From: Candidatus Omnitrophota bacterium
Lineage (GTDB): Bacteria > Omnitrophota > Gorgyraeia > Gygaellales > Profunditerraquicolaceae
Length of the DNA: 64,000 nt
NCBI GenBank assembly: GCA_041653115.1
Contig: JBAZGA010000007.1
Coordinates: forward strand, 1,646 to 65,645
Reading direction: 5' to 3'
Shown: positions 40,631-60,568 of the stretch, piece by piece
Numbering within the stretch: the stretch's first letter is position 1
Layout: each line of letters starts with the position of its first letter
The notes under the pieces: generated by a model
What the model saw: the letters and a program-made list of their open reading frames with translations, nothing else
The model's database searches: none
Told to the model about the DNA's origin: nothing
Made by a program: the position numbers and the translations under genes

Positions 40631-40660
40631 TTGACAACAAGGCACTCTTTATGTTATTAT
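40631..40660 (+). promoter_or_regulatory. sigma70-like promoter TTGACA-18-TATTAT
   Basis: hexamers read directly; 80 nt upstream of 40741 start. Confidence 0.45.
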
Positions 40661-40684
40661 TGAATTAAGCTTTTAACAGACAGA

Positions 40685-40719
40685 GACGTCCGGAAGTTCT
40701 GGACGTCTTTTATTTTTTA
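40685..40719 (+). terminator. leader hairpin GACGTCC-N9-GGACGTC followed by T-run (attenuator-like) between promoter and nfnA-like gene
   Basis: perfect 7-bp stem plus TTTTATTTTTT; lies inside 5' UTR so likely regulatory. Confidence 0.45.
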
Positions 40720-40740: not shown

Positions 40741-41562
40741 GTGATGAAAATACTAAAAAAAGAAAATTTAGCTAAAGCAGTCACCAAAATAGAGGTTCTT
40801 TCCCCTGATATCGCCGGGAAAGCCAAGGCCGGCCAATTTATCAGCCTGATGGTCAGCGAAAAAGGAGAAAGGATCCCCCTGACCATCGTAGATAAGGAGG
40901 AAAATAAGGGGACGATTACCTTGATTTTTCAGGAAGCAGGCCTGACTACTAAGCTCCTGGGGAAATTAAACGCAGGTGATTCGCTGTACGCTTTAGCCGG
41001 ACCATTAGGGCATCCCACGGAAATTAAGCATTATGGGAAGGTAATTTTAGTCGGAGGCGGAGTGGGGATTGCGGAAATCTACCCTGTTGCCAAGGCATTA
41101 AAAGCGGCAGGGAACCAGCTTACGGTTATCTTAGGGGCAAGGAGTAAAGATTTACTGATTTTAGAGAAAGAGCTGAAAACGGTTGCGGATGAATTTTATC
41201 TGGTTACTGACGACGGCTCTTATGGGAAAAAAGGCTTTACCACCGATGTATTGGGAGAACTGCTAAAAAAAGATAAATACGATCTGGTGTACGCAGTCGG
41301 CCCCATCCCGATGATGAAAAAGGTCTCGCAGGTTACCGGAGGCCTTAACCTGAAGACCATAGTTTCTTTAAATGCCTTGATGGTGGATGCCACCGGTATG
41401 TGCGGATGCTGCCGGGTCAGCGTTTCAGGCAAGGTAAAGTTCAGCTGTATAGACGGCCCGGAATTTGACGCGCGCGAGGTCGACTGGGAGGAGCTGGAAA
41501 AAAGGAACCGTATTTACGAAGTTCAGGAAAAGCACATTTGTAAACTCTATAATTTATGCTGA
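40741..41562 (+). CDS. NfnA/SudB/PyrK-like FAD + [2Fe-2S] electron-transfer subunit
   Basis: ferredoxin-reductase-like fold, C-terminal GMCGCCRVS...C cluster. Confidence 0.6.
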   Translation: MMKILKKENLAKAVTKIEVLSPDIAGKAKAGQFISLMVSEKGERIPLTIVDKEENKGTITLIFQEAGLTTKLLGKLNAGDSLYALAGPLGHPTEIKHYGKVILVGGGVGIAEIYPVAKALKAAGNQLTVILGARSKDLLILEKELKTVADEFYLVTDDGSYGKKGFTTDVLGELLKKDKYDLVYAVGPIPMMKKVSQVTGGLNLKTIVSLNALMVDATGMCGCCRVSVSGKVKFSCIDGPEFDAREVDWEELEKRNRIYEVQEKHICKLYNLC

Positions 41563-43054: not shown

Positions 43055-44413
<1,359 letters not shown>

Positions 44414-44420
44414 ATATTAC

Positions 44421-44716
44421 TTGACAAGCCCCGGTTAATATGTTATCCTTTTTATGACAAGTAGGAGAAGGCACAAGGTCTGTGCCAAGGAAGGACAAAG
44501 GCGTTGAAAAGACGCCTTTTTTTGTTGTCCTTTCCATTTTCAGCGTAAGAAAAGTTGAAAAGGAATGTTCCTTATCGTTAGCAGGGTTTAGCTAACAAAT
44601 AAAACATTTCTTTTAGCAAACAATGGCGTTTTATGCCGCAATTTATGCGGCGTAAGACGCCTTTTTTATTGAGGCCACAACTTACGGAAGATAAAGCGCG
44701 AGGGATAAATTTAGCC
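44421..44716 (+). promoter_or_regulatory. structured 300-nt leader of the GAF-ANTAR gene: promoter-like TTGACA-17-TATCCT, hexaloop hairpins, and two tandem intrinsic terminators (44499-44527, 44649-44667)
   Basis: GGCACA-AGGTCT-TGTGCC, AGGCGT-tgaaaag-ACGCCT+T7, GTTAGC-AGGGTT-GCTAAC, CCGCA-ATTTAT-TGCGG, GGCGT-aag-ACGCC+T6. Confidence 0.5.
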
Positions 44717-45427
44717 ATGCCAAGATCATTTGCAGATCAACTCAAGGCTTTTTCCAAAATCAGCAAGGCGATTACTTCCGACCTCTATCTGGAAGATATT
44801 TTGCGTTTGATTGTGACGGTTACCGCGGAAGTCCTGGATTCAAATATCTGTTCTTTGATGCTTGTCGATGAAAAAACCAATGAACTGGTGGTGCGCGCCA
44901 CCCAGAGTATCAGCGAGGAATACAATAAAAAAGCGCCGCTCAAGGTTGGGGAAGGCATTGCCGGGAGAGTGGCTAAGGAGAATAAAGCTATCTCGGTAAA
45001 GGATGTCGCCAAGGAAAAGGAATATAAAAATAAGGATATTGCCAAGAAAGAGGGCTTGAATTCTTTATTGTGCGTACCGCTCTCGGTGAAGGGCAAGGTT
45101 ATCGGAGTGATTAATTGTTATACCCCCAAACCGCATGATTTTAGCGATACCGAAATCGAGATCCTCAGCACCATTGCCAATCAGGCGGCGGTAGCGATTG
45201 AGAATACGGAATTAATCGTAAAAAGCAAAGTCATCCAGGAAGAGCTGGAGACTCGCAAAAGAATTGAGCGCGCCAAAGGTATTTTAATGCGCGATGAAGG
45301 GTTGACCGAAGAGCAGGCTTATTTAAAAATTCGTAAATACAGTATGGATAACCGCAAGACCATGCGCGAAGTAGCCGAGGCGATTATCCTGGCGGCGGAT
45401 ATGAAACATTTAACCCGGGCGAAGTAG
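44717..45427 (+). CDS. GAF-domain + ANTAR-domain RNA-binding antitermination regulator (start moved downstream of terminator to ATG 44717 with GAGGGA RBS)
   Basis: GAF fold residues; C-terminal RAKGILM...LTEEQAYLKIRKYSMDNRKTMREVAEAII ANTAR consensus. Confidence 0.7.
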   Translation: MPRSFADQLKAFSKISKAITSDLYLEDILRLIVTVTAEVLDSNICSLMLVDEKTNELVVRATQSISEEYNKKAPLKVGEGIAGRVAKENKAISVKDVAKEKEYKNKDIAKKEGLNSLLCVPLSVKGKVIGVINCYTPKPHDFSDTEIEILSTIANQAAVAIENTELIVKSKVIQEELETRKRIERAKGILMRDEGLTEEQAYLKIRKYSMDNRKTMREVAEAIILAADMKHLTRAK

Positions 45428-47159: not shown

Positions 47160-47333
47160 ATGAAAAACAAAGGTCTCTGCAGCACTTGTAACGCGGACAA
47201 GGCTTGCGTTTTCCAGCGCCGCTTTCCGGTTTTAGAGTGCGAGGAATTTAACGATTTTACAAACCATAAATATGCCGTAAAAATAAAACCGAAAAGGGCC
47301 AATTTCAGCGAAGAAGCAACTGAAGCAGAGTAA
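47160..47333 (+). CDS. possible 57-aa Cys-rich protein (CSTC...C...C) translationally coupled to preceding gene
   Basis: GTGATGA overlap with upstream stop; below ORF-track cutoff. Confidence 0.3.
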   Translation: MKNKGLCSTCNADKACVFQRRFPVLECEEFNDFTNHKYAVKIKPKRANFSEEATEAE

Positions 47334-47434
47334 GAGGCCAACGTAGGCTTAGCACATATTCAGCAACAGGACTAAAGGCGGTCCAAAAATCCAGCGATGG
47401 ACAAAGGGCCGCTTTTTATTTAAAAGAGGGTATT

Positions 47435-47959
47435 ATGCGTTTCGAAGAATTAGTGAAGAAAATCAGTCCGAAGCTGAAGGCAATCGCACATAAGCTTAAC
47501 GGCCGTTTTGCCTATCTTGGCGAAGAAGACTTATGCCAGGAGGCGCTGGCGCATCTCTGGCTGGATTTTCAGCAGGGTAAATTGGACGACAAGACAGAAA
47601 GTTATATTTTGCAAGGTTGTTATTTCCATCTCAAGAATTACCTGCGTAAGGCCGGGGATAAGGCCAGCCTCTTCAGCTTTGAGTTTATGCTCAATGAGGA
47701 GGGAGAAGCCCTTGATTTACAGAATATCCTGCCGCTGGAGAGCGCCGAGCCCGATTACCATTCCCGGTTTCTTATTGAGCAGATCAGGAACGACGGCTTG
47801 ACCAAGAGAGAAAAAGAGGTTTTCGAATTTTCCCTGGAAGGGTTGACCACGCGGGAAATCGGCTTGCGCCTGGGCATTTCTCATGTCCGGGTAGTCAAAT
47901 TGAAGAAAAAAGTTAAAGAGAAATGTAAAAAATATTTAGACGACCCCGCCTTAATCTAG
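47435..47959 (+). CDS. ECF-type sigma-70 family RNA polymerase sigma factor
   Basis: region 2 (DLCQEALAHLW) and region 4 HTH (TTREIGLRLGISHVRV). Confidence 0.6.
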   Translation: MRFEELVKKISPKLKAIAHKLNGRFAYLGEEDLCQEALAHLWLDFQQGKLDDKTESYILQGCYFHLKNYLRKAGDKASLFSFEFMLNEEGEALDLQNILPLESAEPDYHSRFLIEQIRNDGLTKREKEVFEFSLEGLTTREIGLRLGISHVRVVKLKKKVKEKCKKYLDDPALI

Positions 47960-48020: not shown

Positions 48021-48716
48021 ATGAAAGAAAAGATTCTGATTGTTGATGACGAAAAAGATATAGTCAGGATGCTTGACTATAACCTGAAGAAGGACGGATT
48101 CAGGACGCTTTCCTGCCATGACGGAGAGGACGCATTGGACCTCGCCGGCCGCGAGCACCCGGACTTAATTATCCTGGACCTGATGCTGCCTGGTATGGAC
48201 GGTTTGGAAGTTTGTAAGACCCTGAAAAAAGAAAATAAAACTTCAAATATCCCGATAATTATGCTGACTGCCAAGGCCCAGGAGGCGGATAAGGTAGTGG
48301 GGTTAGAGTTGGGCGCGGATGATTACGTAACCAAGCCGTTCAGCCCGCGTGAGTTAATTGCCAGGGTAAAGGCGGTTTTACGCCGGGTGAAAGAAAAAGA
48401 AAAATTACCGGAAATTTTAAGGGTCGGCGAATTAACTATCGATTTTTCTAAAATTCAGGCCAGCGTAAAAAATAAACCGCTTGAACTTACCGCAAAGGAA
48501 TTCGAATTGTTAACCGCCTTGCTTAAAGTAAAAGGAAGGGTCCTCTCCCGCGATTATCTTTTAGACAGCATCTGGGGTTTTGACCATGCGCTGGAAATTC
48601 AAACCCGCACTGTTGACGTGCATATCCGGACGCTGCGCAAAAAACTGGGAAAAGAAGCAAAGCGGATTATTACCGTGAAGAACTACGGCTACCGCTTTGA
48701 TACAGATGAAGATTAA
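48021..48716 (+). CDS. phoB: OmpR/PhoB-family response regulator
   Basis: receiver Asp in IILDLMLPGMDG, winged-helix C-terminus; genomic context with phoR/pst. Confidence 0.8.
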   Translation: MKEKILIVDDEKDIVRMLDYNLKKDGFRTLSCHDGEDALDLAGREHPDLIILDLMLPGMDGLEVCKTLKKENKTSNIPIIMLTAKAQEADKVVGLELGADDYVTKPFSPRELIARVKAVLRRVKEKEKLPEILRVGELTIDFSKIQASVKNKPLELTAKEFELLTALLKVKGRVLSRDYLLDSIWGFDHALEIQTRTVDVHIRTLRKKLGKEAKRIITVKNYGYRFDTDED

Positions 48717-50484
48717 GAAGCACAGCCTTAAATTAAAATTAATCTTTTCTTATGTCCTCATCATCGCGCTTTCTTTCGGGCTCGCCGCCTATTTTTTAAA
48801 CAGAAATCTAGAAGAAAATTCCCTGCGGGAAATTAAATCCTCGTTAATCAGCCAGGGCTGGTTGGTTGTAGCCCAAATCCCTCAAGACGACATCAAGAAT
48901 GGAAACACGCCACGCCTGCAAACATTAGCAAAGACTTTAAGTGCAAGTATAAAATCCCGCTTGACTATAATCAGTAGACAAGGCAAGGTTTTAGCCGATT
49001 CTGAAAAACCGGAAAGCGGTGTTCTGAAGATGGAGAACCACGCCCAGCGGCCGGAAATAAAAGAAGCTTTAGCCGGGGCAATCGGAGAAGAAATCCGCTA
49101 TTCTTCAACACTTAAGATGGATATGCTTTATGTGGCTTTGCCCGTCCCGGAGAAAGGCCAAATTTTAGGCGTAGTCCGCTTAGCGCTTCCTCTTGCCAGC
49201 GTGCAAAAAACATTATTCAGCGTAAGAAAAGCAATTTTATTCAGCATCCTTTTTGCTTTAGGTTTAAGTCTTGTCCTGGGTTCTTTATTGACGCAGGCGA
49301 CGATTAAACCGATTAATAAGATTATCCTTGCTTCGCGTAGATTCTCCGCGGGAGAATTCAGCCATAAAATATTAATTGATACCCGGGATGAAATCGGGGA
49401 GCTCGCGGCTACCTTAAATAAGATGGCAGAAGGGCTGGAGGCTAAAATTAAGGAAGTAGAAATACAGAACCAGCACCTCAGGGCAATCTTACGGACTATG
49501 GTAGAGGGTATTATCGTTACGGATAAGTCCGGCCGCATTATTTCGATTAATCCTACGGTGGAAAAGATATTTAATATTACTCAACAAGGCGCTGAAGGCA
49601 AGCTTCTTCTGGAAGCGGTGCGCAATAACGACATTGCGGAGATTATCAACGCTGTTTTAAAAAACGGTAAATTTATCTCCCAGGAGCTTAATCTGGTATT
49701 GCCGGCGCAGGGGATATTTAAAATTAACGCCTCTCCTATTTTTGAAAAAGACGCGGTAATCGGATGTTTATTGGTAATTCACGACATAACCGAAATGCGC
49801 AGGTTAGAAACGATGCGCCGTGATTTTGTGGCTAATGTTTCACACGAATTAAAGACGCCGCTTACCTCTATTAAGGGGTTTGTAGAGACGCTCCTTGAGG
49901 GAGCGATGGAAGACAGGGAAAACAGCCGCCATTTTTTGGGGATTATCCAGAATCATAGTGAGCGGCTGAATAACCTGATCAATGATTTACTCGACCTTTC
50001 GCACATTGAATCCAGAGAAATAAAATTAGAAATCACCGATTTCAGCCTGCGGGGATTGACGGAAGAGGTCTTATCCGGTTTTAAGTCAAAAGCTAAAGAG
50101 AAGGCCCTTGAGATAACCAACGCATTAGATAAGGCTTTATCGGTGAAGGCGGACAAAGATAAGATAGAGCAGGTTCTGACTAACCTGGCGGATAATGCGA
50201 TTAAGTTCAACCGGCAGAACGGGACGGTTAGGATTTATTCCGAGGGCTTAGGAGAAAAGATCAAGGTTACCATAGAAGATTCCGGTATCGGCATCCCTGC
50301 CAAAGATCTCTCCCGCATCTTTGAGCGTTTTTACCGCGTGGATAAAGCGCGCTCGCGCGAATTAGGCGGCACGGGCCTGGGGCTTTCCATCGTCAAGCAT
50401 ATCGTAGAATTGCACGGCGGTTCGGTCGGCGTCGAAAGCAGCGAGGGCCTAGGCTCAAAATTCTGGTTCACCCTTCCGCAGTAA
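48697..50484 (+). CDS. phoR: sensor histidine kinase PhoR-like (TM, HAMP, PAS, HisKA, HATPase)
   Basis: ANVSHELKTPL H-box, GTGLGLSIVK G-box. Confidence 0.8.
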   Translation: MIQMKIKKHSLKLKLIFSYVLIIALSFGLAAYFLNRNLEENSLREIKSSLISQGWLVVAQIPQDDIKNGNTPRLQTLAKTLSASIKSRLTIISRQGKVLADSEKPESGVLKMENHAQRPEIKEALAGAIGEEIRYSSTLKMDMLYVALPVPEKGQILGVVRLALPLASVQKTLFSVRKAILFSILFALGLSLVLGSLLTQATIKPINKIILASRRFSAGEFSHKILIDTRDEIGELAATLNKMAEGLEAKIKEVEIQNQHLRAILRTMVEGIIVTDKSGRIISINPTVEKIFNITQQGAEGKLLLEAVRNNDIAEIINAVLKNGKFISQELNLVLPAQGIFKINASPIFEKDAVIGCLLVIHDITEMRRLETMRRDFVANVSHELKTPLTSIKGFVETLLEGAMEDRENSRHFLGIIQNHSERLNNLINDLLDLSHIESREIKLEITDFSLRGLTEEVLSGFKSKAKEKALEITNALDKALSVKADKDKIEQVLTNLADNAIKFNRQNGTVRIYSEGLGEKIKVTIEDSGIGIPAKDLSRIFERFYRVDKARSRELGGTGLGLSIVKHIVELHGGSVGVESSEGLGSKFWFTLPQ

Positions 50485-50752
50485 GCGGACACCAAACCAT
50501 CCGATAGGTTTGGGGGCTCCGTATTGACCTTCTGATTTTACCCACTTTTTACTTATCCTTGAAGCAGATTTAATCCCTCCAGTTTATACTTTAGGCGTGA
50601 TGAAAATCTTTCGCAAGTTTATAATCCGTTTTAAAAAATTTCTAATGGCGATTATCGCCGAAGAGATTGAGGCGATGGACAGCTTCTATAAACAATATGC
50701 CTAGAAATCATTATGAAAAATATGAAGACAGGAAGGAGGTGAAGAAAAGGGC

Positions 50753-50950
50753 ATGGAAACTATCTCACCTATACGCAGGGAGTTTGTGGCCAGCCACCTG
50801 CGTTCTCAGCTAGAAAGGTTGCGCAGAGTAGTCGGCAATATTGAAGTTGAGGACGCCAGAGACCGCTTTTACGCCAAGGAATCCCTCAGAGAAATAGAGG
50901 CGAATCTCCGCCGGATAAGAAAGTTGAACATGAATCACTATCATCATTAG
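50753..50950 (+). CDS. hypothetical 65-aa protein
   Basis: GGAGG RBS; helical, His-rich end NMNHYHH. Confidence 0.3.
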   Translation: METISPIRREFVASHLRSQLERLRRVVGNIEVEDARDRFYAKESLREIEANLRRIRKLNMNHYHH

Positions 50951-50969
50951 GTAAAGGGAGGAAAGAGAA

Positions 50970-52262
50970 ATGAAAAAGCTGTTATGTCTGATATTGGCAG
51001 TGTGTTTTTGGGTATCGTTGATAATAACCAATTCCTATGCCGGAGAAATTGACATCCTTTTGCAGAAGTTGGTCGAAAAGGGTGTTTTAACCGGCGCAGA
51101 AGCCCAGCAGATTAAGGTTGAGACCAAAGAGGCGGTTAAGAAAGAAATCGTTGCAGGTAAATCCGAAACTTTGCCCGCCTGGGTTCAGGCAATCAAGATA
51201 AAGGGGGATTTCAGGGGAAGGTATCAGTATAACCACGGCAAATCAACAGCCACTTCGACAACCGAGCGCCACAGGGCGCGCATCAGATTACGCCTCGGCG
51301 TGGAAGGTAAGGTAAATGACAAGCTGAAAGTCGGCGTTGGTTTGGCTACGGGCTTAAATTCGACCGAGAGTAGCAGTACGTTAAGCGCTGATTATGCGCG
51401 CTCGACGAACCAGACTTTATATGAAGGTTTTTCAAAGAAAGGCATAGGTCTGGATTATGCTTATGCCGAATACGCGTTTTCGCCCTGGGGCAATTTTATC
51501 GGCGGCAAATTTAAGAATCCCCTCTGGGAGCCGGGTGACCTGATTTGGGATACGGATATAAATCCTGAGGGCGCAGCGCTTAATTTAAATAAGAAATTAA
51601 TGCTGGGCGGGTTAGGATTAAACGTATTCTCTACTACGGGAGTTTTCCCTCTTGATGAAAGTAGCTCTAGCGGAGACGATCCGATGATGTATGTCCAGCA
51701 AGCGGGATTAACCCATAATTTAACCGATACCATATCACTGAAAACCGCACTGGCTTATATGTATACCTCAACGCAAGGAGACACCCTGGACGGCACCACA
51801 AGCACAAATACTACTCCCCTTGAAGACTTCAGTATGTTGACTCCTGCCGTAGAGCTGAAATTCAAGGAGCCTTTTAAGTTTCTGGGTGTGGGTTTCTTAA
51901 ACATACCGAGCTTGACGCTTTTCGGAGAATATGTAAAGAATACCCATGCGCCGAATGACAAGAAGGATACCGGCTTTATGACCGGCTTAAAATTTGGCGC
52001 GGAAAAGATAGAAGGCTGGGGAGATTGGCAGGCAAGTTATAACTTTGCCGCTTTACAAAAAGATGCCATATTGGATATATTGCCTGATTCTGACCGTTAT
52101 GGCGGACAGACCGGTGTAAGGGCCCATGAAGCCAAGTTTTCATACGGATTAGGCAAGAATACCTGGTTTGATTTGGATATCTACCGGGCTCAAAGATGGC
52201 GTGCCGGAGTTGCCAGGGCTCCAGAGACAGTATTTCAGGCGGATTGGAACATGAAATTTTAG
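50970..52262 (+). CDS. outer-membrane porin (signal peptide, N-terminal helical segment, barrel ending in Phe); likely phosphate-associated by context
   Basis: architecture similar to porin at 3410; terminal ...WNMKF; upstream of pstS. Confidence 0.5.
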   Translation: MKKLLCLILAVCFWVSLIITNSYAGEIDILLQKLVEKGVLTGAEAQQIKVETKEAVKKEIVAGKSETLPAWVQAIKIKGDFRGRYQYNHGKSTATSTTERHRARIRLRLGVEGKVNDKLKVGVGLATGLNSTESSSTLSADYARSTNQTLYEGFSKKGIGLDYAYAEYAFSPWGNFIGGKFKNPLWEPGDLIWDTDINPEGAALNLNKKLMLGGLGLNVFSTTGVFPLDESSSSGDDPMMYVQQAGLTHNLTDTISLKTALAYMYTSTQGDTLDGTTSTNTTPLEDFSMLTPAVELKFKEPFKFLGVGFLNIPSLTLFGEYVKNTHAPNDKKDTGFMTGLKFGAEKIEGWGDWQASYNFAALQKDAILDILPDSDRYGGQTGVRAHEAKFSYGLGKNTWFDLDIYRAQRWRAGVARAPETVFQADWNMKF

Positions 52263-52286
52263 GCAGGATAAAGGAGGATTATACAA

Positions 52287-53099
52287 ATGAAAGCGATAGG
52301 TAAATTACTGCTTCTCGGTTTAATGATGGCCGGTCTTGTGCTTCCCTGTTACGCGGAAAAAATTGTTATTGAAGGCTCGACTACGGTTTTGCCCATTGCT
52401 CAAAAAGCAGCCGAAGAATTTATGGATATGCATTCGGGAGCGAATCTTTCCGTACGCGGCGGCGGCTCAAGCGTGGGTATTGCCTCGATGATTGACGGAA
52501 CATGCGATATCGCGGACGCATCGCGCGCGATTAAAGATACGGAATTAGATAAAGCAATGACCAACGGCCGAGACCCGGTTGCGCATATCGTGGCTATGGA
52601 CGGGATAGCGGTAATAGTCCATCCCTCAAGCAGAATAAATGCGTTGAGCAAAAAACAGGTGAAAGCAATTTTTACCGGCCAAATTTCAGACTGGTCGCAG
52701 GTCGGCGGACAGCCCGGGAAAATCGTGGCGATTTCCCGCGATTCATCAAGCGGGACCTACGAAGCATTCGGAGAACTGGTATTGGATAAACAAAAGCCCA
52801 GGGCCGATGCCTTATTACAAGCCTCTAATCAGGCAGTTACCCAGACAGTGGCGAGGACGCCTGCTGCAATCGGGTATGTAGGATTAGGCTATGTCTCTTC
52901 TTCGGTTAAGGCGCTGGAAATCGATGGCGTGATGCCTTCAAAAGAGACGGTCCTTTCCGGTAAATATCCCGTTACGAGACCTCTGTTTATGTACACAAAT
53001 GGACAGCCGCAAGGCGCGATAAAAGAGTTTATGGACTTTGTGAAAAGTGAACAGGGACAAAGAATCGCCGAGGAGGAAGGATTTGTGGGGTTAAAGTAG
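52287..53099 (+). CDS. pstS: phosphate ABC transporter substrate-binding protein
   Basis: signal peptide, GSTTV...RGGGSSVG motif. Confidence 0.8.
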   Translation: MKAIGKLLLLGLMMAGLVLPCYAEKIVIEGSTTVLPIAQKAAEEFMDMHSGANLSVRGGGSSVGIASMIDGTCDIADASRAIKDTELDKAMTNGRDPVAHIVAMDGIAVIVHPSSRINALSKKQVKAIFTGQISDWSQVGGQPGKIVAISRDSSSGTYEAFGELVLDKQKPRADALLQASNQAVTQTVARTPAAIGYVGLGYVSSSVKALEIDGVMPSKETVLSGKYPVTRPLFMYTNGQPQGAIKEFMDFVKSEQGQRIAEEEGFVGLK

Positions 53100-53156
53100 G
53101 CAATAAGCGTTTACTCATTTAACCTCAGAGAGCACGGCAGGAAGAGCTTTTCTGCC

Positions 53157-54065
53157 GTGTTCTCGCATGAGATTAACGAAATGGTTCGCTTAAAAGAAAA
53201 AATTTATCAATGGATATTTAGTATTCTGGCGTTTTCCTCCTTATTTTTCCTGGTCGGCATTATCATCGTTCTTTTTAAAGAGTCGCTGCCCCTGTTCAGT
53301 AAAATAAAACTCTCGAGTTTTCTCTTTGGTAAGTCGTGGTACCCAACATTTGACCCTGCGGAATTCGGCATTCTGCCTTTGATATTGGCTTCGCTATGGG
53401 TGACATTTGGAGCTTTGCTTGTCTGCGTGCCTTTAGGAATAGGAAGCGCCTTGTATTTGAATGAGTTAGCCGGACACAAGCAAAAGGCGATATTAAAGCC
53501 GTTAATTGAAATATTGGCAAGTATCCCTTCTATTGTCTACGGGTTTTTTGGAATGGTGGTGATGGCGCCTTTCCTGCAGAACCTGCTGGATTTGCCTATC
53601 GGCTTATGCGCTTTTACCGCAAGTATAATTTTAGGTATTATGGCTGTTCCTACTGTCTGCAGCATTGCCGAAGACGCCTTGAGTTACGTCCCGGCAGCTT
53701 TTAGAGAAGCATCCTTTGCCCTGGGCGCTAATCGCTGGCAGACATTAATCAAGGTAGTAATACCTGCTGCCGGCTCGGGAATCTCTACGGCAATTATTTT
53801 GGGTATCAGCAGGGCAATCGGGGAAACGATGACGGTTTTAATGGTCGCCGGAGGCGCTGCGGTCATTCCCAAATCTTTCTTTGATCCGGTCAGGCCGATG
53901 ACCGCAGCTATTGCCGCAGAGATGGGCGAAGCTCCTCTTGGGAGCCTGCATTATCACGCGCTATTCAGCATCGCGCTTATTTTATTTCTGGTTACCTTTG
54001 TCTTTAATATCATTGCTGAATTAATCAGCAGAAGATTCAGGTTAAAACTGGGATTGGCAGGATGA
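53157..54065 (+). CDS. pstC: phosphate ABC transporter permease PstC
   Basis: 6 TM, EAA-like loop; ATGA overlap with pstA. Confidence 0.8.
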   Translation: MFSHEINEMVRLKEKIYQWIFSILAFSSLFFLVGIIIVLFKESLPLFSKIKLSSFLFGKSWYPTFDPAEFGILPLILASLWVTFGALLVCVPLGIGSALYLNELAGHKQKAILKPLIEILASIPSIVYGFFGMVVMAPFLQNLLDLPIGLCAFTASIILGIMAVPTVCSIAEDALSYVPAAFREASFALGANRWQTLIKVVIPAAGSGISTAIILGISRAIGETMTVLMVAGGAAVIPKSFFDPVRPMTAAIAAEMGEAPLGSLHYHALFSIALILFLVTFVFNIIAELISRRFRLKLGLAG

Positions 54066-54910
54066 AGAAAGATATTACGCAGAATGTCGGGTTTGCTTTT
54101 CTGATTATGTGCATATTGATTACTTTGTTTTTTCTTTGCGCAATCATTTATTTTATCGGGATAAGGGGGATAAAGGTCATATCCTGGGAGTTTCTCACTC
54201 AATCTCCCCGGGCTGCGATGACCAGGGGCGGGGTTGCCCCGGCAATCGAAGGACCGTTTTAACTTACTCTGGGAGCGATTTTATTTGCCCTTCCCTTAGG
54301 GCTAGCATGCGCAATTTATCTTTGCGAATATAGCCCTAAGGGTTTTGCCGTCAACATCATCCGCATGAGTATTAATAACCTGGCGGGAGTGCCTTCCGTA
54401 GTCTTCGGCCTTTTTGGCCTGGCGGTATTCGTAAAATTCTTTGGCTTCGGAGTATCCATGCTTTCGGGAAGCCTCACCCTTGGCATACTCGTATTTCCCT
54501 TGATAATTTCCGCAGCCCAGGAAGCGCTCCTGGCAGTACCGCTTTCGCTGCGCGAGGCGTCGCTGGCATTAGGCGCAACTCAATGGCAGACGATTAAAAA
54601 AGTAGTTTTACCCACTGCGCTTCCCGGGTTACTTACCGGAGTAATCTTAAGTATCGGCAGGATCGCCGGAGAAACCGCCCCGATTCTTTTTACTGCCGCG
54701 GCATTTTATCTGCGGGGATATCCCCGGTCGATATTTTCTGAAGTCATGGCCCTGCCTTATCATATTTATGCGCTGATGACGGAAGGGACCCACCCCCGGG
54801 AGCAGACGGCAATTGCCTACGGTTGCAGCCTGATACTTTTATTCTTGGTTTTATTAGTTTCGGGTATTGCCATTATTATGCGTCAGAAGCAGAGGAGCAT
54901 GCATGGATAG
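54062..54910 (+). pseudogene. pstA: phosphate ABC transporter permease PstA interrupted by a single in-frame TAA (54260-54262); both halves in same frame
   Basis: translation reads ...AIEGPF*LTLGAILFALPLGLACAIYLCEYSPKG... continuous PstA sequence across the stop. Confidence 0.65.
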
Positions 54911-55667
54911 CGCAGTAAAAATGAGAGCGCAAAACGTAAATTTCTTTTACGGCAAAACGCAAGCGCTTAAGAATATTAATCTGGTTGTTTATTCCAATAA
55001 AGTTACCGCGATCATCGGGCCTTCGGGATGCGGAAAGTCAACATTCATCAGGCAGCTTAACCGGATGAATGAATTGATCGCCAATACGCGCTGCGAAGGA
55101 GAAATTACTTTAGACGGAACGGATATCTGTTGCGACAGCATAATAGATGCGGTAGAGGTCAGGAGGCGCATCGGCATGGTTTTTCAAAAACCCAACCCCT
55201 TTCCCAAGAGCATCTTTGAAAATATAGCTTACGGGTTACAGGTAAACGGCATAAAAGACAGGCAGTTTATCGAAGATAGGGTTGTTGAATCGTTAAAGAG
55301 GGCGGTGCTCTGGGAGGAAGTTAAGGGCCGCTTACATGAGAGCGCTTTAAAGCTTTCGGGTGGACAACAACAAAGACTTTGCATTGCCCGCTGCCTGGCG
55401 GTGGAGCCGGAGGTAATACTTTTTGATGAGCCCTGCGCCAGCCTTGATCCCATTTCTACGGGAAAAATTGAGGAGCTGATCCTTGAATTAAAAAAAGATT
55501 ACAGCATCGTGATTGTCACGCACAATATGCAGCAGGCGGCCCGCGTCTCGGATTACACCGGATTTTTTCTCCTGGGCGAATTGATAGAATTTGGAAAAAC
55601 CGAAGACATATTTACCAAACCCCGGGACAAACGCACGGAAGATTATATTACCGGAAGGTATGGTTAA
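54903..55667 (+). CDS. pstB: phosphate ABC transporter ATPase
   Basis: Walker [10 protein letters not shown], signature LSGGQQQRL, Walker B ILFDEP. Confidence 0.85.
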
Positions 55668-55676
55668 GGAGGCCAG

Positions 55677-56345
55677 ATGGAAAGGCATTTAGACGAGGAA
55701 TTAAAGGAATTACACAAAGAAATCCTGAAGATGGGGACTTTAGCGCAGGAGGCAATCTATAAGTCTGTTGAAGCGCTGAAAAACCGGGATAAAGCCGGGG
55801 CGCAGGAAGTAATTGATACAGATAACCGTATTGACGAACTGGAATTAGCCATTGATGAGCGATGCATTGATTTAATTGCCCGCTATCAGCCCATGGCAGG
55901 GGACCTGCGTTTTATTACCACAGGGATGAAGATTAATGCGGAATTGGAGCGGATTGCCGATTTAGCGGTGGATATTTGCCAGCGGATTTTAGGATTAATA
56001 GATAAGCCGCTCTTAAAACCGCTGATCGACATCCCTCGTTTATCCGACGTAGCCCAGGAGATGATACGCGACGCCATTGATTCTTTTGTCAAGAAAGACG
56101 CGGATTTGGCCGGCAAAGTGATTTTATCCGATCCCTTGGCAGATGAATTGCGTAACCGCGTTCAGGATGAGCTAATTAACGATTATATGGCAAAAGACGC
56201 CTCAACTTCAAGCCGCGCTGTGCCGCTATTATTGATCGCCCGGCATCTGGAGCGTATCTGCGACCACGCCACCAATATCGCCGAAGACGTAGTCTATCTG
56301 GTTAAAGCCAAGGTAGTAAAGCATCACCGCGAAGAACTCGCTTAG
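55677..56345 (+). CDS. phoU: phosphate signalling complex protein PhoU
   Basis: two PhoU repeats with ERIADLAVDI and ERICDHATNIAEDV. Confidence 0.85.
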   Translation: MERHLDEELKELHKEILKMGTLAQEAIYKSVEALKNRDKAGAQEVIDTDNRIDELELAIDERCIDLIARYQPMAGDLRFITTGMKINAELERIADLAVDICQRILGLIDKPLLKPLIDIPRLSDVAQEMIRDAIDSFVKKDADLAGKVILSDPLADELRNRVQDELINDYMAKDASTSSRAVPLLLIARHLERICDHATNIAEDVVYLVKAKVVKHHREELA

Positions 56346-56400
56346 GGAAGAGAGAGTTACCAAAAGAAGGCTTTTTTTACTTGTATTGATGTAGATTTAA

Positions 56401-56517
56401 ACACGCTGAGGTGTAAGCAGGTTAGGGCGTTCTAAAAAAGGAACGCCGTTTTTTATAAAATATTTTAGACGCAGGCGTCTTTTAGGCCCGTAGTCGGACT
56501 ATCAGGACGCCTTTTTT
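56401..56517 (+). promoter_or_regulatory. leader with hexaloop hairpin (ACAC-GCTGAG-GTGT) and two tandem terminator hairpins (GGCGTTC-N8-GAACGCC+T6; AGGCGTC...GGACGCCT+T6) upstream of PII-like/amtB/glnK
   Basis: stems and T-runs read directly; short hairpin GACG-CAGG-CGTC overlaps 5' arm of second terminator. Confidence 0.5.
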
Positions 56518-56537
56518 ATTATTTTGAGGTAAAGACG

Positions 56538-56858
56538 ATGAAAAAGATCGAATGTATCATCCGTTCTGAAAAATTGAAAGATATCAGCGAATCCTTAAGG
56601 AAGATCGGTATCGGAGGGATGACCATAAGCGATGTCCGCGGTTTCGGTACGCAAAACGACCGCGGAGGCGATTTGCTTTTTTTACATAAGACCAGGATAG
56701 ATATTTACGCTACCGAGCGTCAGGTAAAGAAAATCATTTCCGTCATTCTGATGCATTGTTCGGCAGGTAAAGTTGGCGACGGCAAAATCGCAATTTTACC
56801 TTTAGAGGATTGTATACGCGTGCGTACGGGCGAACGCGGGGAAAAAGCAATTGCTTGA
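56538..56858 (+). CDS. divergent PII-family signal protein (GlnB-like, lacks canonical T-loop Tyr51 context)
   Basis: MKKIECIIRSEKL...GMTISDVRGFG and C-terminal GDGKIAILPLEDCIRVRTGE PII signature; T-loop differs from neighbour glnK. Confidence 0.65.
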   Translation: MKKIECIIRSEKLKDISESLRKIGIGGMTISDVRGFGTQNDRGGDLLFLHKTRIDIYATERQVKKIISVILMHCSAGKVGDGKIAILPLEDCIRVRTGERGEKAIA

Positions 56859-56880
56859 AAAAGGCGAAGGTGCGATATAA

Positions 56881-57057
56881 ATGCTGGACAGGGAATTGAT
56901 TGATAAGCTCAAAACTTTTAAAGAGGAGAATGAGTATACCTTGTGCGATCTTTCCAGGAAGATTGATGTCCAGGTAACAACCCTGGAGCGCTGGCTTAAG
57001 ACCGGACGGATAAACAAACTATACGCCAGGATCGTGAGGGAGCGATTGGGGATTTAA
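56881..57057 (+). CDS. possible 58-aa helix-turn-helix protein between PII-like gene and amtB
   Basis: YTLCDLSRKIDVQVTTLERWLK HTH-like; below ORF-track cutoff; weak RBS. Confidence 0.25.
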   Translation: MLDRELIDKLKTFKEENEYTLCDLSRKIDVQVTTLERWLKTGRINKLYARIVRERLGI

Positions 57058-57184
57058 TCAAAGTAGGCATTGGTAGCGCTCTAGATATCGAGAAGTAATT
57101 TTTTTTAGATATGTTATAATCAATTGATTAAACAATTGTGAGGAGGCAAAGCATGGAAAGCAGGGGAAAGGAGGAGGTTGTAAT

Positions 57185-58513
57185 ATGGATATGAAGGTAA
57201 TCATCGATACGATATGGGTTCTGGTCACGGCGAAACTGGTCTTTTTTATGAACCTGGGTTTTGGCATGGTGGAATCGGGGTTCGCCCGGACCAAGAACTG
57301 CGTGAATATTTTATCCAAGAACTTTATCGTCTTTGCGGTTTCTTCGCTGGGGTTCCTGCTTTTGGGCTGGGGGCTGATGTTCGGCGATGGGAATCCTTTT
57401 GTCGGGCTAAAGGGACTCTGGTTTTTAAGCGGAGCAGACAATTCGCCGGCAAGCGGGGCTGCTTACCAGGGGGTTTATTCGGCAATTTCCTGGACAGACG
57501 TGCCTTTGTTTGCCAAATTCTTCTTTCAACTCGTCTTTTGCGGGACAGCGGCAACGATTGTTTCCGGCGCAGTGGCGGAAAGAATCAAATACAAATCCTT
57601 TATCTTGTTTTCCTTTATTATGACCATGATTATTTATCCGATAGTCGGACACTGGGTCTGGGGCGGCGGATGGCTGGCCTCCAAGGGGATGTTTGACTTT
57701 GCCGGCTCAACGGTAGTGCATTCTGTCGGCGGATGGGCGGCCCTGGCAGGCGTATTATTGTTAGGCCCGCGCTTCGGTAAGTATAGCAACGGCAGCATCA
57801 ATCCTATTCCCGGGCATAACTTATCTTTAGCCACTCTCGGGGCATTTGTTTTATGGTTCGGCTGGTTTGGATTTAATCCGGGCTCAACGATGATGGCCGA
57901 CCCGCAGGCGATCAGCCATGTTGCGGTTACCACCAATACTGCCGCAGCAGCGGCGATAATGAGCTCTACTATTCTTTCCTGGCTTATGCTCGGTAAACCG
58001 GATTTGGGGATGACCTTAAACGGCTGTCTCGCCGGCCTGGTGGCGATAACCGCGCCTTGCGCTTTTGTCAGCGTAGGCAGTTCCATAATTATCGGGTTAG
58101 TTGCCGGTATCCTGGTTGTATTATCGGTTATCGGCTTCGATAAGTTAAGGATAGACGATCCCGTAGGCGCATTATCGGTGCATTTGGTAAACGGCGTTTT
58201 CGGTACGCTCTGCGTAGGCTTGTTCGCTCAGGATAAGATTGTCGGCGTGGCCACCGGAAACGGTTTGTTTTACGGGGGCGGCAGCAAGTTGCTTTTTGCC
58301 CAGTTGACCGGGATAGCCGCCGTCGGTGCATACACCTTCATTGTTTCTTTCGTTACCTGGGCAATCCTTAAGGCAACTTTGGGTATTCGTGTCAGCCTGC
58401 AGGAAGAAATCGAAGGCCTGGATATCGGCGAACACGGTAATTCTGCTTACCCGGAATTCCTGATTCGTAAACCCAGTCATGCATTTTTAGGGATAAAGGA
58501 CGATAATCTTTAA
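57185..58513 (+). CDS. amtB: ammonium transporter
   Basis: 11 [21 protein letters not shown] signature. Confidence 0.85.
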
Positions 58514-58529
58514 AAAAGGGGGGTATTAG

Positions 58530-58868
58530 ATGAAAAAGATTGAGGCGATAATCCGGCCGGAGAGACTGGCGGCGGTACAGAGCGCTTTAGGAGAAGCCGG
58601 GTGCACCGGCCTAATGGTTACCGAAATCGAGGGACACGGAAAACAAAAAGGGGTAGTCCAGCAGTGGCGCGGAGAAAAATATAAAGTAGAACTTGTGCCC
58701 AAAATAAAAGTAGAAACGGTGGTCAAGGACGGCGACCTGAAGCGGATTCTCAAGGCGATTATTGATAACGCCAGGACAGGCGAAATCGGAGACGGTAAAA
58801 TATTTATCTATGACATTGAGGACGCCCTTAGAATCAGAACCGGAGAGGAGGGCGAAGGGGTTATTTAA
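58530..58868 (+). CDS. glnK: nitrogen regulatory protein PII (GlnK/GlnB, canonical)
   Basis: MKKIEAIIRPERL..., T-loop GHGKQKG...YKVE (Tyr present), C-terminal GDGKIFIYDIEDALRIRTGEEG. Confidence 0.85.
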   Translation: MKKIEAIIRPERLAAVQSALGEAGCTGLMVTEIEGHGKQKGVVQQWRGEKYKVELVPKIKVETVVKDGDLKRILKAIIDNARTGEIGDGKIFIYDIEDALRIRTGEEGEGVI

Positions 58869-58933
58869 TTTATAACCGGGGTTACCAAAAAAGGCAATTT
58901 TTTACTTGTATAAGTGAGAGCTTAAAGTTTAGG

Positions 58934-59027
58934 CACATTGTAGTGTAAAATTAGGCAGAGCTAAGCACGAACACAGGCGTTCAGGACGGTCATTGCCAAA
59001 TGACCGGAATGAACGCCTTTTTATTTT
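58934..59027 (+). promoter_or_regulatory. glnA leader: hexaloop hairpins CAC-ATTGTA-GTG and GAAC-ACAGGC-GTTC, the second overlapping 5' arm of terminator AGGCGTTCA...TGAACGCCT+T-run
   Basis: ANTAR-type A1/G4 hexaloops; terminator stem 9 bp with internal hairpin GGTCAT-TGCCAA-ATGACC. Confidence 0.5.
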
Positions 59028-59053
59028 AGCTAACACAAGAAAGGAGAAAGATA

Positions 59054-60568
59054 ATGGCAAGAGGAAAGAAAGTTTCCCGCGGAGCAGCCGCAGTAAAAAC
59101 CAAGAATCCTTTACTGAACGGCACGTTTGACGAGCAGGCGGCAAGGGACGTGGCAAAGTTGATCAAAGAAAAGAACATTGAGATGGTCGACTTGAAGTTC
59201 AATGATTTGCCGGGTCTCTGGCAGCATTTTACCATCCCTGCTTCCGAACTGAAGGAAATGGATGACCTTACCCGCTCAATCTGGGTAGACGGTATCGGTT
59301 TTGACGGTTCGTCCATCAGAGGGTTCCAAAAGATTCAGGAATCGGATATGATTTTGATCCCCGATCCCTCCACGGCAATACTGGATCCTGCCTGTGAAGT
59401 GCCTACCCTGAGTATTATCTGTGATATTTACGATCCCCTGACCCGCAAACCCTATACCCGCGACCCGCGCTATATCGCCAAAAAGGCGGAGAAATATCTT
59501 AAGGATTCGGGTATCGCAGACAGCGTTTATTTTGGACCGGAAGCGGAGTTCTTTCTCTTTAACAGTATCCGCTTCGACCAGACCGAAAACTCCGGTTATT
59601 ATTTTATTGATTCCCTAGAAGCGGACTGGAACACCGGCCGTGAGGAAAACCCTAATTTAGGCTATAAGATTCGCTTCAAAGAAGGCTATTTCCCCGTGCC
59701 TCCGCATGATTCCCTGCAGGACTTAAGGAGCAGGATCATCATGAAGATGAAGGAAGCCGGTATTAATGTCGAAGTCCACCATCACGAAGTAGCTACTGCC
59801 GGTCAGTGCGAAATCGATATGAAGTTCGATAAGCTGACCAAGATGGGCGATAACCTGCTGCTTTACAAATATATTATCAAAAATATGGCGAGAAAAGCGG
59901 GGATGGTCGCCACTTTTATGCCTAAGCCGCTCTTTGCCGATAACGGCTCAGGCATGCATTGTCACCAGAGCTTATGGAAGAAGGGCGCAAATCTCTTTTA
60001 TGACAAGGACGGTTATGCCCTGTTATCGCAGACCGCCAAATACTATATCGGAGGGTTATTAAAGCACGCCAACAGCCTGATGGCATTTTGCGCTCCCACG
60101 ACAAATTCCTATAAAAGGCTGGTGCCTGGTTATGAGGCGCCGGTGAACCTGGTTTATTCGGCGCGCAACCGTTCGGCAGCGGTGAGAATCCCGATGTATT
60201 CGGACAATCCGAAGTCAAAGAGGATAGAATTCCGGCCGCCTGATCCCTCATGCAACGGCTACCTGGCTTTTAGCGCCATGCTCATGGCCGGCCTTGACGG
60301 CATCCAGCGTAAGATTGACCCGGGCAATCCTTTAGACGTCGACCTTTTTGAGTTAAGCGAAGAGGAGCTGAGCAAGATTGCCACGGTTCCTTCGTCTTTA
60401 CGCCGGGCAATTGATGCCTTAGAGCATGACCACGATTATCTATTGAAAGGCGGGGTATTTACCAAGGATGTGATTGATATCTGGCTGGAGTATAAACGGA
60501 AAAGAGAAATTGACCCGGTGAGAATGCGCCCGCATCCTTATGAGTTTTACCTCTATTTTGATATTTAG
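59054..60568 (+). CDS. glnA: glutamine synthetase (type I-like with about 30-aa N-terminal extension)
   Basis: GS beta-grasp and catalytic-domain motifs. Confidence 0.8.

Follow-up and report, generated by a model that had tools for sequence, protein, structure and literature searches.

A 64 kb stretch of DNA from a Candidatus Omnitrophota bacterium (hereafter the window) contains two intergenic leaders, one upstream of a PII-amtB-glnK operon (leader 1) and one upstream of glnA (leader 2, the glnA leader), that are very probably protein-dependent transcription attenuators of the ANTAR type. A GAF-ANTAR protein encoded in the same window is their probable effector. With less assurance, a small sigma factor resembling the extracytoplasmic function (ECF) class is favoured as the reader of the promoter-like motif GTTACCA-N15-TACTTGTA that precedes both leaders. 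The explanation as a whole, in which ANTAR attenuators, the GAF-ANTAR protein and the sigma factor with its promoter would form a feed-forward circuit, is given a probability of about 0.75 on the basis of the sequence.

The glnA leader

ANTAR targets consist of two short stem-loops with hexaloops carrying A at position 1 and G at position 4 (A1/G4), and the second hairpin overlaps an intrinsic terminator (Ramesh 2012, PMC3369931). The glnA leader has all of these defining features: the two stem-loops, the A1/G4 hexaloops, and the overlap of the second hairpin (P2) with a terminator. Its parts are as follows.

58869-59053, leader 2 (glnA leader)
58881-58910, + strand, promoter-like motif GTTACCA-N15-TACTTGTA, an exact match, with GTTACCA as proposed -35 and TACTTGTA as proposed -10 element
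58933-58946, + strand, proposed recruitment hairpin P1, GCAC-AUUGUA-GUGU; 4 bp, A1/G4 hexaloop, -2.4 kcal/mol
58947-58968, + strand, 22-nt P1-P2 linker with conserved AAAAUUAGGCA
58969-58982, + strand, proposed antiterminator hairpin P2, GAAC-ACAGGC-GUUC; 4 bp, A1/G4 hexaloop, -1.6 kcal/mol
58975-59018 (stem) and 59018-59022 (U-run), + strand, intrinsic terminator AGGCGUUCA...UGAACGCCU; -27.9 kcal/mol, z -8.1
59054-60568, + strand, glnA, encoding a type I glutamine synthetase of 504 aa (Pfam Gln-synt_C, 8e-137)

The 5' arm of the terminator, AGGCGUUCA, extends from the middle of the P2 loop through the 3' arm of P2 to the next A. P2 and the terminator share positions 58975-58982 and are thus mutually exclusive. 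The whole leader is more stable than shuffled sequences (z -4.4), none of 200 shuffles being as good, and its module scores 42.3 bits (E 6e-13) with the covariance model described below.

An earlier note on this DNA had proposed riboswitch-like leaders with ANTAR-type hairpins upstream of both transcription units. All hairpins and terminators that it listed are present in the sequence, with small corrections of the coordinates. In leader 2, the AUUGUA hairpin was located at 58933-58946, and GAAC-ACAGGC-GUUC is also present, at 58969-58982 and not at 58977. The claim that the 3' arm of a hairpin doubles as the 5' arm of a terminator holds for this leader. The term riboswitch-like does not, since P2 is intrinsically very weak (-1.6 as against -28 kcal/mol for the terminator), so that a protein has to stabilise the antiterminator.

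The linker element AAAAUUAGGCA is kept in the long-linker glnA leaders of Omnitrophota and not in the short-linker ones. This element (58947-58957) repeats UUAGGCA located directly 5' of P1 (58929-58936), about 21 nt upstream, and the linker/5' repeat was also seen in ten related loci. No conserved pairing partner for AAAAUUAGGCA was found by RNAalifold on 17 leaders. A longer P1 stem, formed by pairing of the linker AAAAUUAGGC with the 5' flank, would make the effective linker shorter; it was suggested by a single-sequence fold and was rejected, as RNAalifold on the 17 leaders gave it no support. A covariance model match at 59151 within glnA (E 0.04) was taken as chance.

Leader 1

Leader 1, between phoU and the PII-like gene, is the less canonical of the two leaders.

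56346-56537, leader 1
56356-56385, + strand, promoter-like motif GTTACCA-N15-TACTTGTA, an exact match that begins 11 nt past the phoU stop codon
56401-56414, + strand, P1, ACAC-GCUGAG-GUGU; -3.0 kcal/mol, loop G1/G4, non-canonical at position 1
56426-56447 (stem), followed by G and U6, to 56454, + strand, terminator T1, GGCGUUCU-AAAAAA-GGAACGCC; -11.8 kcal/mol, z -5.4
56467-56480, + strand, second putative antiterminator hairpin AGAC-GCAGGC-GUCU (core GAC-GCAGGC-GUC at 56468-56479); -4.1 kcal/mol
56473-56512 (stem) and 56512-56517 (U6), + strand, terminator T2, AGGCGUCUU...GGACGCCU; -19 kcal/mol, z -3.8

The 5' arm of T2, AGGCGUCU, overlaps the hairpin at 56467-56480, with positions 56473-56480 shared. 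This hairpin, which can alternatively fold as a 5-bp stem with a tetraloop, is kept as AGAC-GnnGGC-GUCU in PII leaders, and the T2 form is likewise conserved in relatives. The overlap claimed earlier for leader 1 is therefore found between T2 and GAC-GCAGGC-GUC, which had not been listed, and is not found for the hairpin at 56401, which stops 12 nt short of T1. In homologous PII leaders the same T2 module is conserved and the first module is better: P1 reads ACAC-AUUGAA-GUGU and similar, and the equivalent of the P2 that competes with T1 reads AAAC-AGAGGC-GUUU and similar. In leader 1 of the window, the T2 module alone is convincing, and the leader as a whole folds better than shuffled sequences only weakly (z -1.9).

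Two further outputs were set aside. The P2 that the covariance model assigns to leader 1, a GAAC/GUUU pairing inside T1, is an artefact, and T1 has no good P2. A generic scan for sigma-70 promoters and terminators (55500-60000) found T1 and missed T2 and the glnA terminator, the loops of which are too long for it; its promoter matches were at chance level.

Comparative evidence for an ANTAR-type RNA

Within the window, the short hairpins occur at chance frequency (CACNNNGNNGTG with 2 matches as against 1.55 expected, and GAACNNNGNCGTTC, one mismatch allowed, with 4 as against 2.2), and their significance therefore rests on comparison with related loci. For this comparison, 80 glnA-anchored loci were fetched, which together with the window amount to about 1 Mb. 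An independent set comprised 80 metagenomic loci picked solely by homology to the 174-aa sigma protein described below. Freshwater sediment and groundwater sampled by JGI (Ga0315xxx, Ga0265297, Ga0105164) are the origin of many of the related contigs.

A regular expression for dual hairpins (CAC-NNNGNN-GTG, at most 45 nt, [AG]AC-ANNGNN-GT[TC]) gave 39 instances in the glnA-anchored loci and the window, without exception on the gene strand. The expression left the outer pair of P1 free, and this pair is GC in 18, AU in 11 and GU in 9 cases and is never unpaired. The second P2 pair is AU in 28, GU in 8 and GC in 2 cases and is never A-C, though the expression permitted it. The consensus of the P2 loop is AnnGGC. 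A1 and G4 of the P2 loop and G4 of the P1 loop were fixed by the expression; position 1 of the P1 loop, the sole free position of the A1/G4 criteria, is mostly A and at times G or U. Unguided folding of 17 longer leaders by RNAalifold gave a consensus structure that consists exactly of P1 and P2.

The covariance model gave 67 matches at E <=1 in the 80 glnA-anchored loci, 64 of which are on the gene strand. None of the 67 lies inside a recognised gene, and nearly all are located just upstream of glnA, PII, amtB, ANTAR or GltB-like genes. In the independent set, every match (84/84) is on the gene strand. Altogether, the design is shared by about 150 related leaders, which belong to at least five phyla and stand upstream of PII, amtB, glnK, glnA, the GAF-ANTAR gene or the sigma gene.

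In 53 of the 56 leaders checked, the P2 loop holds the beginning of a terminator that has a U-run and shares the 3' arm of P2; two of the three remaining cases are artefacts of the criteria used. The distal terminator stems vary freely between genomes yet remain paired. In the relatives, P2 ranges from +1.2 to -2.3 kcal/mol as against -7 to -33 kcal/mol for the terminators, and a weak P2 facing a strong overlapping terminator is the signature of an antiterminator that requires a protein. The ANTAR-type architecture put forward in the earlier note is thus supported by the A1/G4 hexaloops, the terminator overlap and the conservation in related genomes. The hairpin that competes with the terminator is itself conserved there, and so the reading stands.

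Several observations weigh against attenuation of this type. The loops of leader 1, GCUGAG and GCAGGC, begin with G in place of A. Its competitor of T1, the hairpin at 56419-56432, is degenerate, having three wobble pairs and the loop UAGGGC; antitermination at T1 may be poor, or T1 may chiefly serve to end the pst-phoU transcript. As the alignment that seeded the covariance model had been picked by the regular expression, the invariance of the inner stem pairs is partly built in. Strand asymmetry, gene context, unconstrained covariation and the independent locus set are free of that circularity. Finally, a P1-P2 linker of 22 nt, as in the glnA leader, or of 1 to ~30 nt, as in relatives, conflicts with the strict 5-12 nt spacing of EutV. 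A constrained linker is a property of EutV and not a definition of the family, and the difference is still a real one. Several second modules lack a P1 of their own and fit more easily with the single-hexaloop, successive-binding model of 2022 (PMC8934654).

It is very unlikely that the leaders are metabolite riboswitches (e.g. for glutamine) or plain operon-end terminators with incidental small hairpins. T1 and T2 do follow phoU directly and could terminate the pst-phoU transcript, and the chance frequency of the hairpin patterns within the window would suit such an explanation. However, the terminators come after the promoter motif and not merely after the end of a gene, and the A1/G4 hairpins are conserved, strand-specific and placed between the promoter motif and the regulated genes. 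The conserved part consists of two 14-nt hairpins, which is too small for a ligand pocket. Rfam gave no family at gathering score anywhere in the window and nothing relevant in the leaders at E <=10, where TarB (23 bits as against a cutoff of 80) and a fragment of a long non-coding RNA were taken as chance.

The palindromes CAC-N6-GTG and GAAC-N6-GTTC could also be read at the DNA level, as operators for a dimeric repressor, of which short inverted repeats are typical, or as a shifted sigma-54 -24/-12 element (GGCAC-N6-GTGC), as GGCAC...GTGCA resembles TGGCAC-N5-TTGCA. This explanation is just as unlikely as the preceding one. The GG-GC spacing is 11 nt and not the 10 nt of sigma-54, and no -24/-12 element with the correct spacing was found in the leaders; P1 was rejected as such an element also because its G-U covariation points to RNA. 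The stems vary via G-U (GU in 9 cases for P1 and in 8 for P2, never A-C), which fits RNA and not a DNA palindrome. Moreover, the loop positions are conserved asymmetrically, and not the stems alone, and P2 is taken to overlap the terminator throughout, the count being 53 of 56 leaders.

The GAF-ANTAR protein and its operon

The proposed antiterminator is encoded between gdhA and a GltB-like gene, and its operon has a leader of its own with the same kind of modules.

44717-45427, + strand, GAF-ANTAR protein, proposed antiterminator (Pfam GAF_2 and ANTAR)
44421-44667, + strand, ANTAR-operon leader; covariance model 19 bits (E 9e-5; 44469-44507) and 12.7 bits (second module, ending at 44632)
44421-44426 and 44444-44449, sigma-70 promoter with TTGACA, a 17-nt spacer and TATCCT
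44470-44486, P1, GGCAC-AAGGUCU-GUGCC, with the 7-nt loop AAGGUCU
44494-44505, P2, GAC-AAAGGC-GUU
44500-44516, first terminator, followed by U7; -8.0 kcal/mol
44618-44631, second module, AAAC-AAUGGC-GUUU
44624-44661, second terminator, followed by U6; -27.4 kcal/mol

The earlier note had placed a GAF-ANTAR protein at 44717, and both the ATG start at this position and the domains were confirmed (GAF_2, 6.5e-26; ANTAR, 7.7e-22, 77 bits as against a cutoff of 27.3). The GAF domain is nearest to the GAF domains of PtsP (EI-Ntr) and NifA, which respond to glutamine and/or 2-oxoglutarate. By analogy, this likeness suggests that the GAF-ANTAR protein directly senses nitrogen status. Homologues with 54-81% identity lie within the nitrogen-gene clusters of relatives. 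The layout of the ANTAR operon including its sigma-70 promoter was seen again in four related loci, among them L017, the closest syntenic relative, and two other loci have up to three tandem terminator modules.

Another ANTAR regulator located elsewhere in the genome, e.g. a REC-ANTAR protein like GnfR, could be the true partner of the attenuators, with the GAF-ANTAR protein acting on other targets. This is improbable, though several points weigh in its favour and so against the proposed pairing. The visible genome is limited to 64 kb, which leaves room for another ANTAR protein, and two tandem ANTAR paralogues are present in some loci (L081, L141). The characterised nitrogen system of Geobacter uses a REC-ANTAR protein (PMC2995071). 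In a sister clade of Omnitrophota (five loci), a GAF-ANTAR homologue with 62-65% identity is retained after a second GlnA-like gene, and no hexaloop leaders were found at amtB or glnA within 7 kb; hence the presence of the ANTAR protein is insufficient to predict targets. On the other side stand the position of the GAF-ANTAR gene within the nitrogen cluster, modules of the same kind in the leader of its operon, both in the window and in the four loci mentioned, and the ANTAR homologue that precedes the sigma gene in 14 of the 24 loci with sufficient flank. The neighbouring GAF-ANTAR protein is therefore retained as the probable effector.

The sister clade also lacks the promoter motif, and no sigma homologue was found within the fetched flanks. 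In seven of its loci glnA has a different leader, with a direct repeat GATTTAACAT about 21 nt apart and then GTATACTTTTGGCA; in this leader (e.g. L021, 6890-6960) there is no terminator, hexaloop or GTTACC motif. The upstream open reading frame (ORF) in L021 was taken as NadE from its C-terminal sequence.

A further, less certain target is the leader of the operon for an FAD/NAD-binding subunit, NADPH-glutamate synthase (NADPH-GOGAT) and gdhA.

40631-40717, + strand, possible target leader of the GOGAT/gdhA operon
40631-40636, TTGACA, with a -10 element at about 40655-40660
40679-40690, a single hexaloop hairpin, GAC-AGAGAC-GUC
40687-40705, terminator, followed by a U-rich tail; -10.8 kcal/mol

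The covariance match of this leader (40640-40692) has an E of just 0.18, and there is no convincing P1.

Short palindromic repeats (GAGGCCACAACTTA..GGA...TAAGTTGTATGGCC, GCCCAGCAAGGGCACACCCAACAATCCGATATGTTGGGGTG) were noticed in several nitrogen leaders (five loci). They resemble repetitive extragenic palindromes or miniature inverted-repeat transposable elements, and an apparent truncated copy lies at 44670-44712, just before the ANTAR start codon.

A sigma gene linked to the promoter motif

The sigma gene is preceded by a further module of the ANTAR type.

47435-47959, + strand, 174-aa ECF-like protein of the sigma-70 family, proposed reader of the GTTACCA/TACTTGTA promoter
47336-47417, + strand, ANTAR-type module before the sigma gene, read from the sequence; weak covariance match at 47335-47385 (7.2 bits, E 1.1)
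47336-47349, P1, GGCC-AACGUA-GGCU
47369-47384, P2, GGACU-AAAGGC-GGUCC
47376-47412, terminator, followed by U5; -18.6 kcal/mol, z -3.7

Residues 3-168 of the protein match NCBIfam TIGR02937 (58.1 bits as against a cutoff of 42.9). Of 14 members of the sigma family, 13 match Sigma70_r2 and 13 match Sigma70_r4, and the nearest solved region 4 is of the FliA/SigF type. Similar ANTAR-type modules were found upstream of the sigma homologues.

Both leaders open with GTTACCAAAA-N-TTTTTTACTTGTAT, and GTTACC-N16-TACTTG occurs exactly twice in the 64 kb, at leader 1 and at the glnA leader. In the glnA-anchored loci and the window, 59 copies of the motif are on the gene strand and two, both degenerate, on the other. 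The metagenome-assembled genomes (MAGs) that carry it are labelled Omnitrophota, Elusimicrobia, Firestonebacteria, Latescibacterota and Syntrophorhabdia. The consensus of 131 unique instances is aaaa...gGTTACCAaaa-N7-tTtTTTACTTGTA, and the two blocks keep a spacing of 15-16 nt across phyla. The distance from the end of the motif to P1 is at least 10 nt and most often 11 nt, which leaves no room for another -10 element. This gap argues that TACTTGTA is a -10-like and GTTACCA a -35-like element, which would place the hairpins at the 5' end of the transcript. Furthermore, the ANTAR operon has a canonical TTGACA-N17-TATnnT promoter, so that the GTTACCA motif is not the housekeeping promoter of this organism.

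The sigma gene and the motif are linked. Sigma homologues lie directly upstream of the motif in all 13 glnA-anchored loci that have a sigma gene, and none was found in the motif-less loci (Fisher p 1.7e-5, not corrected for relatedness). Of the loci picked by sigma homology, 78 have sufficient sequence downstream of the gene, and in 61 of them the strict motif is present no more than 400 nt past the sigma stop codon, usually at 10-25 nt. The motif instances in this set also number 78; every one is on the gene strand and none on the other. At least five of the 17 misses still have a motif: three have 15-nt spacers, one is an ATTACC variant and one is in a contig that ends inside it. PII, AmtB, GlnK or GlnA is encoded within the following 2.5 kb in 29 of 35 loci of this set.

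Cyclic di-AMP (c-di-AMP) riboswitches (RF00379, 70-86 bits) were observed directly downstream of the sigma gene in L126 (4569-4733), L132 (991-1156) and L088 (4523-4680). In L126 and L132, a nitrogen-type motif with a 15-nt spacer immediately precedes the riboswitch, so that leaders of other types than ANTAR can also be driven by this motif.

Some observations speak against recognition of the motif by this sigma factor. ECF promoters usually have AAC and CGT blocks and are often autoregulatory. The motif has no AAC/CGT signature, and no copy was found upstream of the sigma gene itself in the sigma-homology loci, and hence no autoregulation, unlike in most ECF systems. No anti-sigma gene was recognised, with the 57-aa, PII-like and 58-aa neighbours not searched for anti-sigma features. 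Linkage between gene and motif is also no proof of recognition.

The motif might instead combine a sigma-70 promoter with an operator for a nitrogen factor, i.e. the 58-aa helix-turn-helix (HTH)-like protein or an unseen regulator, the sigma gene being a mere neighbour with another regulon. This is unlikely, though it is the most serious of the alternatives: besides the missing AAC/CGT blocks and the missing autoregulatory copy, TTACCA and TTGTAT, at a distance of 18 nt, could pass for a weak -35 and a weak -10 hexamer, and the 58-aa ORF is conserved inside the clusters. However, this ORF persists in the motif-less clade (six loci), whereas the sigma gene is found just where the motif is, and the HTH-like protein is therefore disfavoured as the reader. 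The 15-16 nt spacing of the blocks across phyla is typical of -35/-10 recognition by one sigma factor, and the other promoters of the organism are canonical TTGACA/TATnnT. The boxes of NtcA (GTA-N8-TAC), of TnrA/GlnR (TGTNA-N7-TNACA), of actinobacterial GlnR and of NrpR (GGAA-N6-TTCC), compared with the motif by eye, do not fit it.

On balance, recognition of GTTACCA-N15-TACTTGTA by the ECF-like sigma factor is somewhat favoured by these sequence data. The earlier proposal that nitrogen assimilation is controlled by antitermination is supported. A further layer of NtrC/sigma-54, for which that proposal allowed, is improbable; a promoter linked to the ECF-like sigma gene probably takes that place.

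Proposed regulatory circuit

In the proposed circuit, the housekeeping polymerase would start at the TTGACA promoter of the ANTAR operon, where two or three ANTAR-dependent terminators would make expression of the antiterminator self-reinforcing (positive autoregulation). A further ANTAR module would gate the sigma gene, and the sigma factor would then guide polymerase to the two GTTACCA/TACTTGTA promoters, that of PII-amtB-glnK and that of glnA, where transcription would start a few nucleotides 5' of P1. Without the antiterminator, formation of the strong terminator would end transcription before PII-amtB-glnK or glnA. Under nitrogen limitation, the GAF-ANTAR protein is predicted to bind the first hexaloop hairpin and then to keep the weak P2 (GAAC-AnnGGC-GUUC) closed, which would sequester GGCGUUC, the 5' arm of the terminator, and allow read-through. 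At the PII-amtB-glnK and glnA leaders, the ANTAR protein would thus be needed again to pass one or two terminators. This would be a coherent feed-forward loop, in which ANTAR switches on the sigma factor while amtB and glnA need both.

In its broadest form, for which the chances appear even, several lineages with few cultivated members (Omnitrophota, Elusimicrobia, Firestonebacteria, Latescibacterota and Syntrophorhabdia) would use the small ECF-like protein, not described before, as their nitrogen-specific sigma factor, with GTTACCA-N15-TACTTGTA as its near-invariant promoter. The GAF-ANTAR feed-forward loop would then fill the role that NtrBC/sigma-54, GlnR or NtcA has in the bacteria studied so far. 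If the sigma-promoter pairing is true, it would explain the control of nitrogen assimilation in these lineages and provide a new global marker of the nitrogen regulon that can be scanned for in thousands of MAGs. Moreover, the sigma factor with its promoter would be an orthogonal pair and the RNA with its protein a small switch, both testable in E. coli without culturing the source.

Gene order and neighbouring genes

Genes in the 64 kb were called with Pfam and NCBIfam. The window was assigned to Omnitrophota, given that its GlnA is 86-91% identical to Candidatus Omnitrophota MAG proteins. Besides the features given above, the following were placed.

Start at 40741, FAD/NAD-binding subunit
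Start at 41573, NADPH-GOGAT
Start at 43076, gdhA
Start at 45514, GltB-like gene
47160-47333, 57-aa ORF with four cysteines, between the GltB-like and sigma genes
48021-56345, phoB, phoR, a porin gene, pstSCAB and phoU
56538-56858, + strand, PII-like gene, first of the regulated operon (56538-58868)
56881-57057, + strand, 58-aa HTH-like ORF
57185-58513, + strand, amtB
58530-58868, + strand, glnK
After glnA, a GATase gene

The order of the PII-like gene, the 58-aa ORF, amtB and glnK was seen again in related loci. In the closest syntenic relative, L017, the order is gdhA, ANTAR, GltB-like, small ORF, sigma, leader, amtB-glnK, leader, glnA, with no pho insertion. In the window, the full phosphate cluster separates the sigma gene from leader 1, while in relatives the sigma gene and the counterpart of leader 1 adjoin. 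Owing to this insertion, the pst-phoU transcript runs directly into the nitrogen promoter and then into T1 and T2.

The 58-aa ORF (MLDRELIDKLKTFKEENEYTLCDLSRKIDVQVTTLERWLKTGRINKLYARIVRERLGI) lies between PII/glnK and amtB, looks HTH-like and has no match in Pfam or NCBIfam. Its identity between loci is 53-74%, the clade without the promoter motif included, and it was found in 13 further loci. The 57-aa ORF, which has no family match either, was found again in about 20 related loci, and its product might serve as a partner of the sigma factor or as a small subunit that carries iron-sulfur or zinc. The PII-family protein of 106 aa has a short, atypical T-loop region (GFGTQNDRGGDLLFL); the gene for this atypical PII is conserved in the first place of such operons in several loci, with 63-67% identity.

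Comparison with known systems

ANTAR control of nitrogen genes is already known in principle, and in this respect the idea of the earlier note is correct and not new. ANTAR elements have been predicted before genes for PII, ammonium transporters, glutamine synthetase and glutamate synthase in diverse bacteria (PMC3369931), and in Geobacter sulfurreducens GnfR acts on terminators in the glnB, glnK-amtB and nifH leaders (Ueki and Lovley 2010, PMC2995071).

The EutV/eut, NasR/nasF and AmiR/amiE systems share with the leaders described here the dual A1/G4 hexaloops, the overlap of P2 with the terminator and the ANTAR gene nearby. They differ in that the stems are near-invariant here (GCAC/GUGC, GAAC/GUUC), the P2 loop is AnnGGC and the sensor domain is GAF. 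The eut linker is 5-12 nt, and a longer one abolishes the action of EutV, although the search of Ramesh et al. allowed a variable linker (PMC3369931); here it is 22 nt, and 1 to ~30 nt in relatives. Several tandem modules consist of a single hexaloop and a terminator, in contrast to the dual-hexaloop targets; a single-hexaloop model with successive binding was proposed by Walshaw et al. 2022 (PMC8934654). The GAF-ANTAR architecture was uncharacterised as of 2012 (PMC3369931), and no characterised example or ligand was found in the literature, including a review of 2025, although the architecture is abundant. The glutamine riboswitch (glnA RNA) and NtrBC/sigma-54 control the same genes, presumably by the same signal, whereas control here would be by protein-dependent attenuation.

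The GnfR site of Geobacter, CAGGCAANGGCGCC, is readable as GGC-AANGGC-GCC, i.e. with a loop of the same AnnGGC class and a GGCG terminator arm. The GnfL/GnfM and GnfK/GnfR cascade likewise has two layers, a special promoter and antitermination. However, Geobacter relies on sigma-54 promoters, the enhancer-binding protein GnfM and a kinase-driven REC-ANTAR protein, in place of which a promoter linked to an ECF-like sigma factor and a one-component GAF-ANTAR protein are proposed here. The order of the layers is also reversed, as the antiterminator would here control the sigma gene.

With ECF sigma factors (group 4), the 174-aa protein shares the size of ~170 aa, the presence of regions 2 and 4 alone, the two-block promoter with a 15-16 nt spacer and the small adjacent regulon. 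It differs in having no recognised anti-sigma factor, no autoregulatory copy of the motif and no AAC/CGT blocks, and its control is apparently transcriptional, via an ANTAR attenuator. No ECF sigma factor linked to glnA, amtB or ANTAR was found in the open-access literature, and no group for nitrogen assimilation is named in the main text of the 2021 reclassification of ECF factors.

Taken alone, the leaders are a well-supported ANTAR example from a candidate phylum without genetics. The added value lies in the circuit, with a GAF-ANTAR protein, tandem attenuators on its own operon, and a sigma-like gene and a promoter that co-occur across phyla. As judged from the sequence, it differs from the known systems in the one-component GAF sensor, the near-invariant stems, the tandem modules and the apparent replacement of the layer of sigma-54 and its enhancer-binding protein by a promoter linked to a sigma gene that would itself be under ANTAR control.

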